DNA from: a virus
Reading direction: 5' to 3' (one strand)
Virus record (IMG/VR): IMGVR_UViG_3300042562_001017
Coordinates: 1 to 64,000 of that record
DNA: 64,000 bases
The notes below the pieces were generated by a model. The model was given only the letters and a program-made list of their open reading frames with translations, had not been told where the DNA came from and ran no database searches. This document shows, piece by piece, positions 1 to 32,210 of this stretch (the first letter of the stretch is position 1; each line of letters starts with the position of its first letter). The position numbers were made by a program, and so were the translations under genes.

Positions 1-229
1 CATATTCTACTGTATTATCTGATAAATACTGATAATCAGCTAAATCTCTATTAACTAAAATTCTACGAGCAGTTTTATTTTTAGGAAGTGTTCTATTTAA
101 ATCAATTTTTTCTAAATCAAAATTGCAAGAATTTATATCAAATAAAGGAATAATATTTAAACTTCTTACATCTATTTCTACTTCAGGAAGTAAATTATTA
201 AAATGTCTTGTATTTCTAAGAATTCTCAT
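1..229 (-). CDS. Hypothetical protein, N-terminal part; runs off the left edge; coupled to the E1/ThiF gene
   Basis: Read manually: ATG at 229 overlaps the TGA of 226..909 (ATGA); frame MRILRNTRHFNNLLPEVEIDVRSLNIIPLFD... stays open to the window edge. Confidence 0.75.
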   Translation of the reverse strand, partial: MRILRNTRHFNNLLPEVEIDVRSLNIIPLFDINSCNFDLEKIDLNRTLPKNKTARRILVNRDLADYQYLSDNTVEY

Positions 230-909
230 ATACTTTCAAACATCATTAACGGAAAATTATAAGTTGTTTTAAAAGATAAATTAACTGGTAAATCTGGATT
301 TAAAGTTGTACCTACATAATTACAAAATAATGCTGTCATTATACTTGCGATAGCCATACCACTAAAAGTAGTTGCTTTCATACTACAAGCAGCATCTTCA
401 ACTTCAGAATCATCAAATAAAGTTCTTTCGTATTCTTTTTCTTTTCCTTTTGTTACACAATAAACTTCTCCTGTGGTGAGTGCCATTCTTCCATCAATAA
501 AAAGTTCTCTATCATCTTCAGCTTTCCATTTATCAAAAGCTAATTTTCTTGCAGCCATATTGTCAAAACAAGAAAATACTATTGGACCAGTCAAACTTTT
601 ATCAGTATATTTTTCATTTAAAGAAATTATATTAGGTTTATCACATAATAAATTAACTAAACTATTAATACTATCAAGTTTTCTCATTCCAATATCAGTA
701 TTAGCATACATTTGACCAGCTAAATTTACTTCATCAATTAAATCATAATCGTATAAATGTAAATTACATTCTAGTCTAGCAAGATTAAGGGTCAGCCATG
801 AGCCGATACCCCCTAATCCTAATACTAATACTTCTACATTTGGTTTGTAAAAGTAAGCTTCTGAAAATCTTACTGTACTTTGTTTAATTGTTTTTATTCC
901 CATACCCAT
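226..909 (-). CDS. ThiF/E1-like ubiquitin-activating (adenylating) enzyme
   Basis: Rossmann VLVLGLGGIGSW, DYDLIDEVNLAGQ, SCFDNMAAR, IDGRM; candidate catalytic Cys175 (DAACS); no Zn CxxC pairs. Confidence 0.9.
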   Translation of the reverse strand: MGMGIKTIKQSTVRFSEAYFYKPNVEVLVLGLGGIGSWLTLNLARLECNLHLYDYDLIDEVNLAGQMYANTDIGMRKLDSINSLVNLLCDKPNIISLNEKYTDKSLTGPIVFSCFDNMAARKLAFDKWKAEDDRELFIDGRMALTTGEVYCVTKGKEKEYERTLFDDSEVEDAACSMKATTFSGMAIASIMTALFCNYVGTTLNPDLPVNLSFKTTYNFPLMMFESI

Positions 910-2057
910 TTGTCCATCTCCTCTATAATTAATTTTGTTGTTGGATGATTTCTGAAACTACTTACTTTTAGAAAATTAATACAATCTATCCATATATCAT
1001 TTAGATTACTTGTATCATCGTAATCGTCAGAAGTAATTGAAAAGAAGTCAAATATATCATGTGCATTATTTATTCTAATTTCAATAAATTCTTTAACTTC
1101 TTTGTTGTTTTTAAATTTCCCTTTGTTTTTAGGAATTAGATTATCTAAATAACCATGTAAAGGAGAAGAATACTCTTGATTATAATTAAAATAAAAAGGC
1201 ATATCTTCTATAGTATAGTTAATATCAATTAATCTTTTAATAAAATTTACAGCTTGAGAATCCCAAGTTAATTTATCTTCAGTTCTTTCTTTGTTTTTTT
1301 CGTCAAATAATTTACCTTGTTTGTAATTATTTTGTTTATAATTTACATTATAACCATAAGTATCGTAATTATCATTCCATGTATTATTTAACGTAGAAAA
1401 AGTTTGTACTGGTTTAGCTGCAATTACTTTTTCATATTGTCTAACAAAGAAATCATCAATTAAATTAGAACTTTCAGCAAATATTTCCATTTCATAATAA
1501 AATGTAACTTGTTTATTTGGTGAACTTATCATTTGTTCTACTCCGTGTCTATCTTTAAATTTTATTGTCCTACCTTCAATTTCACCAATGAATGCAATTC
1601 TAGCGCAATATTCATTTTTGTTATTTACAATTAACGAAAGGTAGTAGTTATAATTAGGAGCATTATCTGTAAGTTCTTCATTGTCAGTTGCACTAAAGAA
1701 AACTGCCATGTTGTTATGTGAATGAATGTGACTCATTGACCATTCCATAAGTTCTGGTTTTTCCATCAAAGCTTCTGTAAAAGAAGGAGAAGAAAAATCA
1801 TATTCTGTATAACCTGAAGTGCCTTTATCTAATAGCAATATATATTCAGCTTTACATGTAAATTGTTCTGGATTTTGTAAATCACCTTCACTAGTATGAT
1901 ACAATACACCTGACCATTCTACTAATGGCATTTTAGAACATAAATATTTAATTTGGTCAATTACAGTTTGACTCAATATTAATTTACCTTTTTTCTTAGA
2001 GAACTCAGTCAATTCTGAATAAGGGTTTTTTTTCAAGGAAGTTATTTGATTTGTCAT
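894..2057 (-). CDS. JAB/MPN+ (JAMM) metalloprotease with long C-terminal extension
   Basis: E47 (VEWSG) plus H112-x-H114-x7-S122-x2-D125 (HIHSHNNMAVFFSATD) is a full JAMM motif. Confidence 0.88.
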   Translation of the reverse strand: MTNQITSLKKNPYSELTEFSKKKGKLILSQTVIDQIKYLCSKMPLVEWSGVLYHTSEGDLQNPEQFTCKAEYILLLDKGTSGYTEYDFSSPSFTEALMEKPELMEWSMSHIHSHNNMAVFFSATDNEELTDNAPNYNYYLSLIVNNKNEYCARIAFIGEIEGRTIKFKDRHGVEQMISSPNKQVTFYYEMEIFAESSNLIDDFFVRQYEKVIAAKPVQTFSTLNNTWNDNYDTYGYNVNYKQNNYKQGKLFDEKNKERTEDKLTWDSQAVNFIKRLIDINYTIEDMPFYFNYNQEYSSPLHGYLDNLIPKNKGKFKNNKEVKEFIEIRINNAHDIFDFFSITSDDYDDTSNLNDIWIDCINFLKVSSFRNHPTTKLIIEEMDKWVWE

Positions 2058-3309
2058 TTATAATATTATTTATTTTGTCGATTAATTGACTTTTTATACT
2101 TTGATAATGAAGTCTATATACATCTAATTCTCCAGAAAAAATTGTTTCAGCTGAAGTTTTGTTTAAAGAATAGTCAATTGTAAGTGTACCAAGTGTTTTT
2201 CCGTTAAAAGTAAAAAAGTTACTTCCAACAATTTCTGTAGTATTACTAGTATTTTTATCACTTTTGTTTAGTTTATCTAAAGAAATATAATTTCTGTTAA
2301 TAGCATAAAAAGAATTAACTTCATCTAAAGAAGAATCACCTATATAAACTTTATTTCTATCTATATCTAAAATTAAATTATTAAATTTATTTGCCATTAA
2401 ACTTTTTATCATTTCTTCACGAAATACGGAATAAGGTACATTTTCAGTTGTATTATTAGAACGAATATCACTAATTTTAATATAAGGTCCGCCTTCTAAA
2501 GATTCCCAAGAAAGATAATTTTCTAAAGCTACACAATAACTTATAGCAAATTCTTCACTAGAAATTGGGATATTTCTATATTTACTTAGCAATCCTTCAC
2601 CTAAACAAGTATTTCTCCATTCATCAAATCCTCTTGAAAAATGAGAAAAGACATATGAAGAAGAATATTCTTCTTGAGATGCTTTAGTTCTTGTACCACT
2701 AACTAATGAAAAACAAGGATTTGAGTTACTATTTTCTAAAAATTTACTAAAATACTTAGCAAAATCACTTAAATATTTTTGTCTAAATGTATTTTGATAA
2801 GATATATCAACTTTTAAATATACATCATAAATAGTATGTTGTCTTCCTGAACTATTTTGAACATGCTTTATTGGAAAATATACTATAAAAAAGCCATCTT
2901 GTATATCTACTCTATCTCCAAAAAAGTCTTTAATTACTTTTTTCCAATCAAAACTATCTTCAGTTTTATTTTCTGAATGTCTATTAAAAAATTCTTCATC
3001 AGTAAGATGTTCTTTTCCTGTTAATTTATTATAAGAGTTTAATGTAAAATCATCTAAAAAACCTCTACTAACATTATTGTGATATTCTTCAGATTGACTA
3101 TAACAATCAGGATTATAATCTATTTCAGGAATTTCATCTTCTATAACTATAACATCTTTTTTATCAATTGACCAGTGAGATATAGTTATATCATCAATAA
3201 TGTTATAATAATTATCAACTAATTCAAATTTTTCAAATATTCTATATATTACAGTTGCAGATGCACCTTGAGAGTTTTTTCCTGTAACTCCAGTTACTAA
3301 TATTTTCAT
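2005..3309 (-). CDS. Putative prokaryotic E2-like (UBC-fold) conjugating protein
   Basis: Central YVFSH223...TC235LGEG resembles the H...CLG active-site signature of Prok-E2 families; lies between Ubl and JAB genes. Confidence 0.6.
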   Translation of the reverse strand: MKILVTGVTGKNSQGASATVIYRIFEKFELVDNYYNIIDDITISHWSIDKKDVIVIEDEIPEIDYNPDCYSQSEEYHNNVSRGFLDDFTLNSYNKLTGKEHLTDEEFFNRHSENKTEDSFDWKKVIKDFFGDRVDIQDGFFIVYFPIKHVQNSSGRQHTIYDVYLKVDISYQNTFRQKYLSDFAKYFSKFLENSNSNPCFSLVSGTRTKASQEEYSSSYVFSHFSRGFDEWRNTCLGEGLLSKYRNIPISSEEFAISYCVALENYLSWESLEGGPYIKISDIRSNNTTENVPYSVFREEMIKSLMANKFNNLILDIDRNKVYIGDSSLDEVNSFYAINRNYISLDKLNKSDKNTSNTTEIVGSNFFTFNGKTLGTLTIDYSLNKTSAETIFSGELDVYRLHYQSIKSQLIDKINNIINDKSNNFLEKKPLFRID

Positions 3310-3329
3310 TTTTTTAATTTAAAAATAAA

Positions 3330-3362
3330 AAAACTCTCTTGTTGTATTAACAAGAGAGTTTT
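3330..3362 (-). terminator. Intrinsic terminator between Ubl and E2-like genes
   Basis: Perfect 14-bp stem AAAACTCTCTTGTT-GTATT-AACAAGAGAGTTTT with T-run on the minus strand. Confidence 0.8.
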
Positions 3363-3370
3363 AAATAAAA

Positions 3371-3775
3371 TTACAGACCTAATTCTCTTTTAATTTTAGC
3401 TGCTTCTGCTGCTAAACTTGAATCAGATGAACTAAGATGTGAAGTAGATGAATGTTCTCCATCTTCGATTTCGTTTAAGATGTCTTCAAAAGCTTCGTCA
3501 AATTTTTCTTTAAGACGAGCAATTACTGAAGCTACATCAATAGATTCAGAACCAGATTTAGTCTTAGCAGGAGTCAAAACTAATTTGAATTCACCTTCAG
3601 GAAGAATTGCTTCCATAGATACTAATTGATTTCTAGTTTCTACAATAGTAGCTACCATGTCTTCATTTAATAATGAAGGAATTTCTGCTCTAAGTTCTCC
3701 CCATGTTGAAGAAGTTGAAATTAAACTTTGCGATGTGTTTGTTTTTGTTGAAAAAACTACAATTTTTCTAGCCAT
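3371..3775 (-). CDS. Putative ubiquitin-like (beta-grasp) protein precursor with C-terminal extension
   Basis: Residues 1-75 show a beta-beta-alpha(TWGELR)-beta...beta pattern ending KLVLTPAKTKSG75, then a 59-aa acidic helical tail; first gene of the E2/JAB/E1 cluster. Confidence 0.65.
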   Translation of the reverse strand: MARKIVVFSTKTNTSQSLISTSSTWGELRAEIPSLLNEDMVATIVETRNQLVSMEAILPEGEFKLVLTPAKTKSGSESIDVASVIARLKEKFDEAFEDILNEIEDGEHSSTSHLSSSDSSLAAEAAKIKRELGL

Positions 3776-4725
3776 TTTGTTAAATTATTTTTTGTTTGAT
3801 TTATTCCATATGACCTTATATAGTCACTAATGTCTTTTTGATTTGATTCTATCGGAATAAATAAAGGAATCAAATTTGGATATTTATTAATTACAGCATC
3901 TGCTGCTATATACCCAGCTTCATCATTATCAAAATTAATTATTATTTGGTCATAATTATTTTGTAAATGAGGTAAATGGATTTCCCATTTAGATAAAGCT
4001 TCAGAATGTGGAGCAACTGATTCGTGCTCTAAAAAATCATAAACCATAACATCTTTTTTACTTTTTGTTATGATTAATAAATTACTCTCATATCTAAGTT
4101 GCTCTAGTCCTTGTAACATCGAGGAATTTATGTTGCTCACAAATCTGAATTCTTTTCTCTTATAATGATACATTTTCCATTTACCATCTTCTAAATATCC
4201 TAAACAAGGGTCGCTATTTCTATAACTATAAACTTGTTTACCATTAATCCAATACATTGCTACACTATAGACATTATGTCTTTTGCAAATATTTGCGGTT
4301 AGATGAAAAGATTTAAGATAATCAATATCTTGTTTAGTATAATTTTGAATTCTACAATCAATTAGTGTTCCTTCTTTAACTAATTTTGGTATATATACAT
4401 AATCTGATTTTACATAATCACTTCCTTTACCTAAAAAATCTTGATATACCATTTCTAGTACCTTCGGGTAAGATATATTATACATATCTTTAAGTATTGT
4501 AAAGCAATTATATACTTTTTTTCTAGCAAAATCAGTTAACCACCAATAACCAGATTGTTCAAAAAACTTACAACCTGCATTTACATCATGTCTTGATGGA
4601 TTTGTATATAAAGTTAATGAATCTGGAGTTAAATTTGTATAGTATTTCCAAATATCTTCTTGTGATATTTTACTTAATAAATAATTTGGAGTTAAATATT
4701 CAGGTTTATCGTTTATACTATACAT
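3757..4725 (-). CDS. DNA primase (TOPRIM), crAss-type
   Basis: NPSRHD N-terminal motif, LLIITKSKKDVM, IIINFDNDEAG (DxD), KDISDY. Confidence 0.85.
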   Translation of the reverse strand: MYSINDKPEYLTPNYLLSKISQEDIWKYYTNLTPDSLTLYTNPSRHDVNAGCKFFEQSGYWWLTDFARKKVYNCFTILKDMYNISYPKVLEMVYQDFLGKGSDYVKSDYVYIPKLVKEGTLIDCRIQNYTKQDIDYLKSFHLTANICKRHNVYSVAMYWINGKQVYSYRNSDPCLGYLEDGKWKMYHYKRKEFRFVSNINSSMLQGLEQLRYESNLLIITKSKKDVMVYDFLEHESVAPHSEALSKWEIHLPHLQNNYDQIIINFDNDEAGYIAADAVINKYPNLIPLFIPIESNQKDISDYIRSYGINQTKNNLTKWLEKL

Positions 4726-30761: not shown

Positions 30762-32210
30762 ATGGCACAATTTCTAACAGACCAAGTGTGGAATGAACAA
30801 ATGAAAAGCAATGATGCTTCTTTCGCTCGTTTAATTAACTCACAACCTGACAAAATCGCTCCTGTACTCACACATATGATGGGTCAAGAGAGTTCACGTT
30901 TCCCTCTTATGTACCTTTCTGAAGGTATGCAAGCTATTCAAGAAGTAGATGGTGACGAATTCGAGTATGATGTAATTGGACGTATGATGAAAGCAGTTCC
31001 TTTACAAGCTCCTCCTACTGGTTCTTATTCTACATCTTTCGGTGTATCTGGAACTGAAGCAACTTTATTCTTCAACGAAGGTATTTTCCCTGTAGGATAT
31101 ACTATTCTTTCTCCTTTAGGTTATCAATTACGTATTACTAGTAGAGATAACGCTAACGGTAACTGGGCTTACAAAGTAAAATTAGTAGCTAAAAATCTTT
31201 CTGAAACTTTACCTGCAAGTGAATTAGCAACTGGTGCGTTATACGCTTCTGGTTGGAACTCGGTAGCAAGTTTTGGTTCATTCGGTTCACTTTCTACTAG
31301 CACTGCTCCTGTTAAAGTACGTGGTGATGTAGGTACTATTCGTAAAGGTTACGCTTATGAAGGTAACATTAAGTATCGTAAAGCTAAAACTGTACAATTA
31401 GACACTAAAGGTGGAGGTACTAAAGAAATGTATTGGCCTTACGAAGAGTATCAGCATAACTTAAGTTTCCGTATTGAATGTGAAACTAACTACTGGTATT
31501 CAAAATCTAATCGTGATGCTTATGGTGTTATCAATGAGCGTGACGAACAAGGTAATCCTATTGTAAGGGGTTCAGGTATGTTTGAGCAAATCTCTAATAA
31601 AGATACTTATGGTACTTTAACTGCTGATAAAATTGACCAAACAATTCGTGATACTTTCTACGGTATGAGTGATGCTGAAAATAAAGTAATTACTCTTTTC
31701 ACTGGTGTGGGTGGACGTATGGCTTTTGATAATGCAATGAAAGCTGAATTGTCAAATAGAGGTTACATCAAGTTAACTGACAACAAATTCGTTGGTGGTT
31801 CTGGATATAACTTGAGCTTAGGTGGTTTCTTTGATACATATCAACATGTTGATGGTTACAAAGTTATTATCAAAACTGCTTCTCTTTTTGATAACGGACC
31901 TCAAGCTTTAGCCAGTCCTAAACATCCTAACTATCCTAACTTACCTCTTGAGTCTTTCCGTATGGCTTTCACAGATACTTCTACTTATGATGGTATGAGT
32001 AACTTAGTTATGGTAAGCAAAAAAGGACGTAGTATGTTACGTGGTATGGTAAAAGGTATCAACGAAGCTGCTTCTGGAACTAGTTTCTCAGCTAATGATA
32101 CTATTTCTACTGATAAAGACGGTAGTTCAGTACATTTCTTAAAAGCTGGTCAAGTTGTACTTAGAAGGTTTAACACTTCTATCGACTTAACTTGTACAGC
32201 AGGTTTATAG
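30762..32210 (+). CDS. Major capsid protein (crAss-type)
   Basis: 482 aa, high-expression codon bias, LFTGVGG, HPNYPNLPLESFRM, followed by a strong terminator. Confidence 0.88.
   Translation: MAQFLTDQVWNEQMKSNDASFARLINSQPDKIAPVLTHMMGQESSRFPLMYLSEGMQAIQEVDGDEFEYDVIGRMMKAVPLQAPPTGSYSTSFGVSGTEATLFFNEGIFPVGYTILSPLGYQLRITSRDNANGNWAYKVKLVAKNLSETLPASELATGALYASGWNSVASFGSFGSLSTSTAPVKVRGDVGTIRKGYAYEGNIKYRKAKTVQLDTKGGGTKEMYWPYEEYQHNLSFRIECETNYWYSKSNRDAYGVINERDEQGNPIVRGSGMFEQISNKDTYGTLTADKIDQTIRDTFYGMSDAENKVITLFTGVGGRMAFDNAMKAELSNRGYIKLTDNKFVGGSGYNLSLGGFFDTYQHVDGYKVIIKTASLFDNGPQALASPKHPNYPNLPLESFRMAFTDTSTYDGMSNLVMVSKKGRSMLRGMVKGINEAASGTSFSANDTISTDKDGSSVHFLKAGQVVLRRFNTSIDLTCTAGL

Follow-up and report, generated by a model that had tools for sequence, protein, structure and literature searches.

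So far, ubiquitin-type protein tagging by prokaryotes has been elucidated in anti-phage systems of bacteria, namely CBASS (cyclic oligonucleotide-based antiphage signalling system) with its Cap2/Cap3 proteins, Bil (bacterial ISG15-like) and Bub. In Bil, the genes of which are ordered BilA-B-C-D, a JAB protease pre-processes the ubiquitin-like protein (Ubl), and an activating enzyme (E1) together with a conjugating enzyme (E2) attaches it to targets without a ligase (E3) (Chambers et al.; PMC10557695). The E1 of this system, BilD, is a large protein with an inactive and an active adenylation domain, an inserted cysteine domain and a zinc site (PMC10557695). Type I Bub (formerly 6E.1/DUF6527) is arranged as BubAB-BubCD-BubE, with Ubl-E2 and JAB-E1 fusions and with BubE as a serine protease (Ye et al.; PMC11601596). 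Its JAB cleaves after a conserved glycine, a minimal ThiF/UBA5-like E1 adjoins the JAB, and the enzymes, which have no catalytic cysteines, form oxyesters through tyrosine and serine (PMC11601596). The only phage-encoded Ubl-JAB pairing that we found described is that of the lambda/T1 tail-assembly proteins TAPI, a Ubl with a terminal glycine and a C-terminal extension, and TAPK, a JAB-NlpC/P60 protein predicted to release it (Iyer et al. 2006; PMC1779556). Here we describe a four-gene cassette at the beginning of a 64,000-nucleotide stretch of viral DNA (positions 1 to 64,000 of IMG/VR record IMGVR_UViG_3300042562_001017; hereafter the window), which we read, with rather better than even confidence, as a bacterial-type ubiquitin-like conjugation pathway run by a phage.

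The virus record, which is 81,085 bp long and estimated to be 93% complete, contributes its first 64 kb to the window. Since the window encodes a crAss-type major capsid protein (positions 30813-32189) and its sequence is present in many lake-water metagenomes, the source is a freshwater crAss-like phage. A blastn search of the cassette locus against GenBank phages returned no match. A single minus-strand gene block occupies the initial 5 kb of the window; in this block a primase gene comes first and is followed by the four genes of interest. An earlier, sequence-only reading of the window had already noted four contiguous, co-oriented genes after the primase, and the open reading frames (ORFs) were indeed recovered at these positions:

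3757-4725, minus strand: DnaG-type primase (Toprim and dnaG matches, phrog_12622), the upstream context of the cassette
3371-3775, minus strand: pro-Ubl, 134 aa
3320-3362, minus strand: terminator-like hairpin with a perfect 14-bp stem, a 5-nt loop and a T-run
2005-3309, minus strand: candidate E2-like transfer enzyme (E2c), 434 aa, singled out by its predicted fold and invariant cysteine and histidine
894-2057, minus strand: JAB/JAMM metalloprotease, 387 aa, with a complete JAMM motif
226-909, minus strand: minimal E1/ThiF-type adenylating enzyme, 227 aa, matching Pfam ThiF

The genes are tightly packed. The start of the Ubl gene overlaps the primase stop by 19 nt, and overlaps of 53 nt and 16 nt link E2c to JAB and JAB to E1, respectively. 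The sole gap in the block is a stretch of 61 nt located 3' of the Ubl gene, which contains the hairpin and its T-run. A codon-by-codon check placed all of the residues named in the sequence-only reading (KTKSG of the Ubl, H223/C235 of E2c, E47/H112/H114/D125 of JAB and C175 of E1) and added S122 of JAB to them.

The first product of the cassette can be divided into two parts:

3551-3775, minus strand: residues 1-75, predicted beta-grasp domain ending K71-T-K73-S74-G75
3374-3550, minus strand: residues 76-134, putatively removable tail, helical in the predicted model and acidic

In the AlphaFold model, calculated with 33 orthologues, residues 3-69 form a beta-beta-alpha-beta-beta-beta unit, two helices lie further on, and residues 73-77 constitute a flexible linker modelled with low confidence. 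Foldseek matched the unit to ubiquitin, ISG15 and kindlin F0 domains with a probability of 1.0 and a root-mean-square deviation of 2.3–2.8 Å across ∼75 columns (18–22% identity to ubiquitin), so that the beta-grasp fold proposed for positions 3371-3775 from the sequence is borne out by the predicted structure. G75 of the model occupies the site of ubiquitin's C-terminus. Two features expected of ubiquitin-like modifiers, a beta-grasp fold of ∼75 residues and a conserved glycine at its end, are therefore found in the predicted protein. P59 is invariant, and K73 and G75 are kept in at least 90% of the 33 sequences; the orthologous folds close with K-x-K-[S/A]-G, beyond which extend between 1 and ∼210 residues. 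This conserved end followed by a tail of variable length is the pattern of a modifier that would be synthesised as a precursor and trimmed at the glycine.

In four related loci (L013, 5380-5700; L026, 5970-6230; L030, 5545-5775; L034, 1500-1770) the Ubl ORF ends one to five codons past the glycine, and a separate ORF of ∼30–70 aa, with a partly helical product, is found between the Ubl gene and that of the E2-like protein. The fused tail of the other Ubls may consequently be a distinct protein with a role of its own.

The protease assignment of the sequence-only reading, an intact JAMM enzyme, is upheld by the motif and by its conservation. The catalytic domain spans about the first half of the protein:

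1683-1724, minus strand: JAMM motif within the JAB catalytic domain (∼residues 1-200), which carries E47, H112-x-H114, S122 and D125

The C-terminal half is helical and variable. In 22 orthologues E47, H112, H114, S122 and D125 show no variation, and their spacing is exactly E...H-x-H-x7-S-x2-D. The JAB protein of the window by itself had no Pfam match; 16 of the 22 orthologues touched Pfam Prok-JAB (best E-value 1.4e-4). When the orthologue profile was compared with the PDB, CSN5 and archaeal JAMM1 ranked first, albeit at weak E-values of 0.03–0.13, and the single sequence gave no match in the PDB. A faint match to PRTRC_A runs across the motif.

The E1 matches Pfam ThiF (PF00899) with an E-value of 1.7e-19 and 70.4 bits (curated cut-off 28.1), and its profile retrieves from the PDB MccB, UBA5, PaaA, ThiF and the NEDD8, SUMO and ubiquitin E1s at 1e-13 to 1e-11. 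The protein contains G31-x-G33-x-x-G36, D56, N62, Q66, K77, D116-N117, R121 and C175; in 22 orthologues that are 31–47% identical, the glycine loop, D56, N62, Q66, K77, D116, R121 and C175 show no or almost no variation, and C175 is invariant throughout. The position of this cysteine was established by alignment with E. coli ThiF (MG1655 record):

385-387, minus strand: C175 of E1, in the crossover loop

In that alignment C175 coincides with the crossover-loop cysteine of ThiF, just before a long helix, which we take to be the catalytic C184, the acceptor of activated ThiS. A residue check found that both CxxC zinc motifs of ThiF are missing from the phage E1. The earlier description of a ThiF/E1 enzyme with a free C175 and without zinc sites thus stands. 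In two lineages (L014, 8610-10043; L022, 8150-9610) the adenylation domain is preceded by an N-terminal extension of ∼250 aa, which is of low complexity, acidic and rich in proline and alanine.

When a JAMM protease accompanies a beta-grasp protein and a ThiF-type E1, sulfur carriage is the classical alternative reading. It is conceivable, although improbable, that the Ubl is a ThiS/MoaD-type carrier that is trimmed by JAB and adenylated by E1, and that its thiocarboxylate feeds the modification of a nucleic acid or small molecule during replication, C235 of E2c carrying a persulfide. We searched the whole 81,085-bp record for five sulfur-partner families, rhodanese, cysteine desulfurase (Aminotran_5), PP-loop ATPase, ThiG and MoaE, and detected none of them, whereas the positive controls responded; the sequence-only reading had made the same statement for the window. 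E1 has no rhodanese domain either. The Ubl terminus is S-G or A-G, whereas G-G is near-universal in sulfur carriers, and the basic residue conserved two positions before the glycine recalls ubiquitin and NEDD8. The combination that marks a ThiS/MoaD-type pathway, a G-G terminus plus a sulfur donor/acceptor in the same genome, is accordingly absent. Tails of up to ∼210 aa and a UBC-like partner are also foreign to sulfur relays. It is possible that host enzymes supply the sulfur partners. Thiamine or molybdopterin biosynthesis itself, which is what the GenBank name of the E1 implies, was rejected on the basis of the missing partner genes and zinc sites.

The protein encoded between the Ubl and JAB genes is the one whose assignment carries the most weight for the pathway. 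Its features are as follows:

3142-3309, minus strand: SH3/KOW-like barrel, ∼residues 1-56 (Foldseek)
∼residues 118-290, minus strand: predicted UBC-like alpha/beta domain carrying S222, H223 and C235 (AlphaFold)
2641-2643, minus strand: H223
2605-2607, minus strand: C235
residues 268-276, minus strand: W-E-S-L-E-G-G-P-Y loop (sequence)
residues 313-431, minus strand: predicted beta-rich and helical C-terminal region (AlphaFold)

E2c belongs to a large family, with 2,990 representatives of 50%-identity clusters at E≤1e-3. A survey of 185,579 species genomes yielded five occurrences, each on a contig of a metagenome-assembled genome (MAG) that bears the cassette, complete or in part, and the family is thus essentially restricted to phages. 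Among 125 members that are ∼20% identical, Y219, S222, H223, C235, G237, E269, S270 and P275 are invariant. The stretch that precedes the conserved core is of very different length in different family members and may be a lineage-specific binding module. The AlphaFold model is of high quality (pLDDT 91, pTM 0.80). Its core starts with a helix (122-133), proceeds through a four-strand meander with an insertion (strands within 134-210) to the S222-H223 loop, reaches C235 twelve residues past H223, and continues with a short helix and a long crossover helix (252-265). In the model, the order of these elements is that of UBC-fold enzymes. An exhaustive structural search pointed in the same direction: about 35 of the best 50 VIA rows were E2, UEV or RWD proteins, with the Bub E2 (BubB, 9eav_D) among them, and the matches spanned 100–130 residues of these ∼150-residue enzymes. 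The H223-C235 spacing in the model is 12, compared with ∼10 between the HPN-type histidine and the catalytic cysteine of E2s. The invariant S222-H223 pair means that Bub-like oxyester chemistry is possible as well. A model of E2c from the ESM Atlas was also considered and discarded, as it was poor (pLDDT 0.31) and its structural neighbours meaningless.

Several observations weigh against the conjugation pathway, and those on E2c have to be considered first. Among the best 50 matches listed when E2c was compared with the PDB by Foldseek there was no E2; all were SH3/KOW proteins, to which (SH3 and Spt5 KOW domains) the N-terminal barrel matched with probabilities of 0.9–0.96. No model of Pfam, NCBIfam, PHROGs or PADLOC matches the E2c of the window. 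Pfam searches with 100 family members gave scattered single hits and no E2 family, and the E2c profile found no match in the PDB even at an E-value of 10. An hhalign comparison with the Cap2 E2 domains of CBASS from four Bacteroidota genomes returned a probability of 0.05%. By sequence profile, E2c therefore falls outside UQ_con, Prok-E2_A to E and the Cap2 E2 domain. Significant Foldseek matches in BFVD were all to uncharacterised proteins, the named ones originating from crAss-like or podovirus records. As regards the other components, the Ubl terminates in S-G and not G-G, the arginine of NLxRQ in E1 is replaced by G65 in the window and by G or T in all orthologues, which is unusual, and there is no E3 among the four genes. 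As to expression, the sequence was found in lake-water DNA runs only and in no RNA run.

Because the Foldseek list holds no E2 and the comparison with Cap2 was negative, we regard E2c as a probable, rather than demonstrated, E2-like transfer enzyme. The E2 role proposed in the sequence-only reading hence fares in two ways: the UBC-like order of elements and the C235 that is invariant in 125 members speak for it, and the missing profile link leaves it plausible but not secured, while the Ubl, JAB and E1 assignments hold. Since the E2 call is structural and weak, there is room for a rather unlikely alternative, in which the Ubl is activated and E1 transfers it directly, E2c being the main target, an adaptor or another enzyme, perhaps a hydrolase or transferase of the Cys/His or Ser/His type that acts on the Ubl or on its tail. 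Archaeal SAMP/UbaA and Urm1/Uba4 conjugation are established cases that need no E2. The absence of a sequence-level link to any E2 family, the middling fold match, and further invariant or conserved residues that are atypical of E2s (S222, W268, E269, S270, P275) would be accommodated by this alternative. Against it, the best 50 structural matches are strongly enriched for the UBC superfold, the elements around H223 and C235 are ordered as in E2s, and the gene lies between Ubl and JAB-E1, the position of BilB and BubB. Moreover, invariant residues across ∼3,000 clusters argue for catalysis and not for a passive target.

In order to determine how widely the cassette occurs, we scanned IMG/VR with an E2c pattern and obtained 35 loci, of which 32 were full-length and three lie at contig ends and are cut off within the cassette. 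Jackhmmer searches with each of the window proteins showed that every one of the 32 full-length loci has Ubl, E2c, JAB and E1 in this order; a primase was detected ahead of them in 30, the remaining two having no primase match. In related phages the cassette comes immediately after the primase or is separated from it by one or two small genes. Gene order is identical in cr85_1 (Steigviridae), a Kolpuevirus isolate, Flavobacterium phage Fpv1 and phiCrAss001, where gp80 is the primase and gp79-gp76 are the cassette. The synteny check suggested by the sequence-only reading therefore came out positive in the 32 IMG/VR loci and in these four annotated phage genomes. In tblastn searches of GenBank phages JAB and E1 each matched 74 records with the same organism breakdown, namely crAss-like phages of Bacteroides, phages of Flavobacterium psychrophilum and genomes of uncultured crAss-like phages. 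These records include DAC15 and DAC17, and DAC15 has at least the JAB and E1 genes. At this level of sensitivity the occurrence is limited to Steigviridae-type and Fipvunavirus-type records, and the cassette was not detected in other Crassvirales records of GenBank phages. The cassette is thus a fixed feature of one large crAss-like clade, and both the residue conservation and the synteny are far beyond chance.

Among the MAG contigs, two are unusual in their labels. In L040 (JBMNLZ010000002.1, 639,747 bp), from a Bacilli MAG, E2c, JAB and E1 were found, and no Ubl or primase was detected upstream; in L041 the cassette lies in a contig of a MAG labelled as the archaeal Nitrososphaerota. Either placement could be due to a prophage, to mis-binning or to a chimeric assembly.

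This distribution bears on the possibility that the set serves counter-defence only, with JAB stripping the conjugates of Bil, Bub or type II CBASS and the phage Ubl, E1 and E2 acting as decoys. In favour of such an activity, host Ubl systems (Bil) attack phage structural proteins according to the summary in PMC11601596, and the phage E1 gives weak matches to Cap2 models. Anti-defence genes are, however, usually sporadic and located in variable regions, whereas the cassette and its order are fixed within the replication module in phages of Bacteroides, of Flavobacterium, of lake water and of other habitats, and a decoy needs no intact four-step catalytic set. The JAB and E1 genes of some relatives also carry homing endonucleases inside their catalytic motifs, a location typical of conserved core genes. 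We consider a purely counter-defensive function very improbable, and the fixed clade-wide distribution fits a core function in the infection cycle better than an accessory anti-defence gene.

The endonucleases just mentioned reside in insertions that interrupt the JAB and/or E1 genes (L006, 7253-11479; also L007, L026 and Fpv1, which is L002). JAB is split inside the JAMM motif at H-S-H|N-N-M, and E1 right after N-L-A|G-Q. Each insertion measures 1.1–1.2 kb and has a LAGLIDADG-type homing endonuclease ORF. They look like introns and not inteins, because this ORF is separate and not in frame with the host gene; an Rfam search of the L006 insertions in JAB and E1 matched no intron family.

The hairpin in the gap between Ubl and E2c also recurs. 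Of 26 related loci, 23 have a hairpin followed by a T-run in this gap, among them phiCrAss001, cr85_1, Kolpuevirus and Fpv1, and the sequences are unrelated to one another. Recurrence despite unrelated sequences points to selection for the structure, and a hairpin at this position fits a modifier that is made in excess over its enzymes.

At the other end of the cassette, a further gene runs off the contig:

2-229, minus strand: fifth gene, 5' part only, truncated by the contig end (ORF list)

The E1 stop overlaps its start by 4 nt (ATGA). At full length the product has 440 aa, as seen in the 98%-identical locus L004 (9090-10412). An ORF lies tightly 3' of E1 in all 34 loci that include E1, and these ORFs fall into at least six sequence clusters; a jackhmmer search started from the fifth gene of the window clade found close relatives only and did not unite the clusters. 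The fifth gene could encode a fast-evolving specificity factor or a target, and it is not counted here as a proven member of the cassette.

From the genes, motifs, conservation, predicted folds, gene order and hairpin described above we infer each chemical step of the pathway that we favour, as well as the E2 role and the existence of a target. The Ubl precursor would be produced in excess, the hairpin 3' of its gene limiting read-through into the enzyme genes. Cleavage after G75 by the JAMM protease would yield a beta-grasp Ubl of 75 residues that ends in a free glycine. The small E1, which like ThiF and UBA5 is probably a homodimer, would adenylate G75 and load the Ubl onto C175, from which it would be transferred to C235 of the E2-like protein. 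The extra domains of E2c, the SH3-like N-terminus and the beta-rich C-terminus, may select a host or phage target protein, and the Ubl would be attached to a lysine of that target without an E3, as in Bil. JAB could also strip the tag. By analogy, each of the proposed steps has a direct precedent in Bil or Type I Bub.

The sequence-only reading had put forward, as possible roles, the modification of host defence proteins or of the phage replisome and the countering of a Ubl-based defence of the host. Given its location in the replication module and its fixation throughout the clade, it is our view that the cassette serves the infection cycle of the phage itself, regulating or protecting a protein of the replication stage, rather than occasional counter-defence. 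Whether the crAss-like clade, comprising phiCrAss001, DAC15 and the phages of Flavobacterium fish pathogens, runs a complete Ubl cascade that tags a protein during genome replication, by means of a virus-restricted E2-like family and a minimal cysteine-bearing E1, is in our estimation evenly balanced; such a cascade would be the first ubiquitination pathway described for a prokaryotic virus and a possible relative or source of Bil and Bub.

A full-text literature search, which covered papers other than subscription-only ones, found no description of the phage cassette; a phage protein family that resembles UBA5 receives a brief mention in a 2026 preprint. In public annotations the proteins appear as 'metalloprotease domain containing protein' (phiCrAss001 gp77) and 'thiamine biosynthesis protein ThiF', the other two being 'hypothetical', and one GenBank phage record names the E1 'E1 enzyme family protein'. 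The current 'thiamine biosynthesis protein' name is misleading. What appears to be new here is a virus-encoded operon for putative bacterial-type Ubl conjugation, an E2-like family for which there is no Pfam model and a minimal cysteine-bearing E1. If the cassette does conjugate, the chemistry of the anti-phage systems is also a fixed component of how the viruses themselves replicate, which raises the questions of what phages tag and which side invented the system. The proposal is directly testable, because the genes are present in the cultured phiCrAss001 (gp79-gp76) and in Flavobacterium psychrophilum phages.

Comparison with the described systems places the cassette as follows. From the phage pair TAPI and TAPK it differs in possessing E1 and E2 components and in belonging to a replication module, whereas the lambda/T1 pair has neither enzyme and is part of a tail-assembly module. 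With ThiF-ThiS and MoeB-MoaD it shares the size, fold family and crossover-loop cysteine of the E1 and a beta-grasp partner, and with CysO/Mec+ and QbsE/QbsD the trimming of the carrier C-terminus by a JAMM protein; the phage set differs from such sulfur-carrier pairs in lacking the G-G end, the zinc sites, a rhodanese or desulfurase and each of the sulfur acceptors that were looked for, and in having an additional UBC-like Cys/His protein. Of the systems described, the Bil and Type I Bub operons come closest. As in Bil, Ubl, E2, JAB and E1 follow one another in the same order, the phage E2 being a candidate only; the Ubl has a glycine that JAB would expose, there is no E3, and cysteines occupy the expected catalytic sites of E1 and of the E2 candidate. 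Unlike BilD, the phage E1 consists of one adenylation domain (227 aa), which carries its cysteine directly in the crossover loop and lacks a zinc site. E2c, JAB and Ubl of the phage are matched by none of the Bil, PADLOC or NCBIfam models, and the cassette is situated in a viral replication module and not in a host defence island. In contrast to Bub, the four phage genes are separate, a terminator-like hairpin follows the one for the Ubl, and C175 and C235 are invariant. The phage set is a hybrid that combines the minimal architecture of Bub with the cysteines of Bil.

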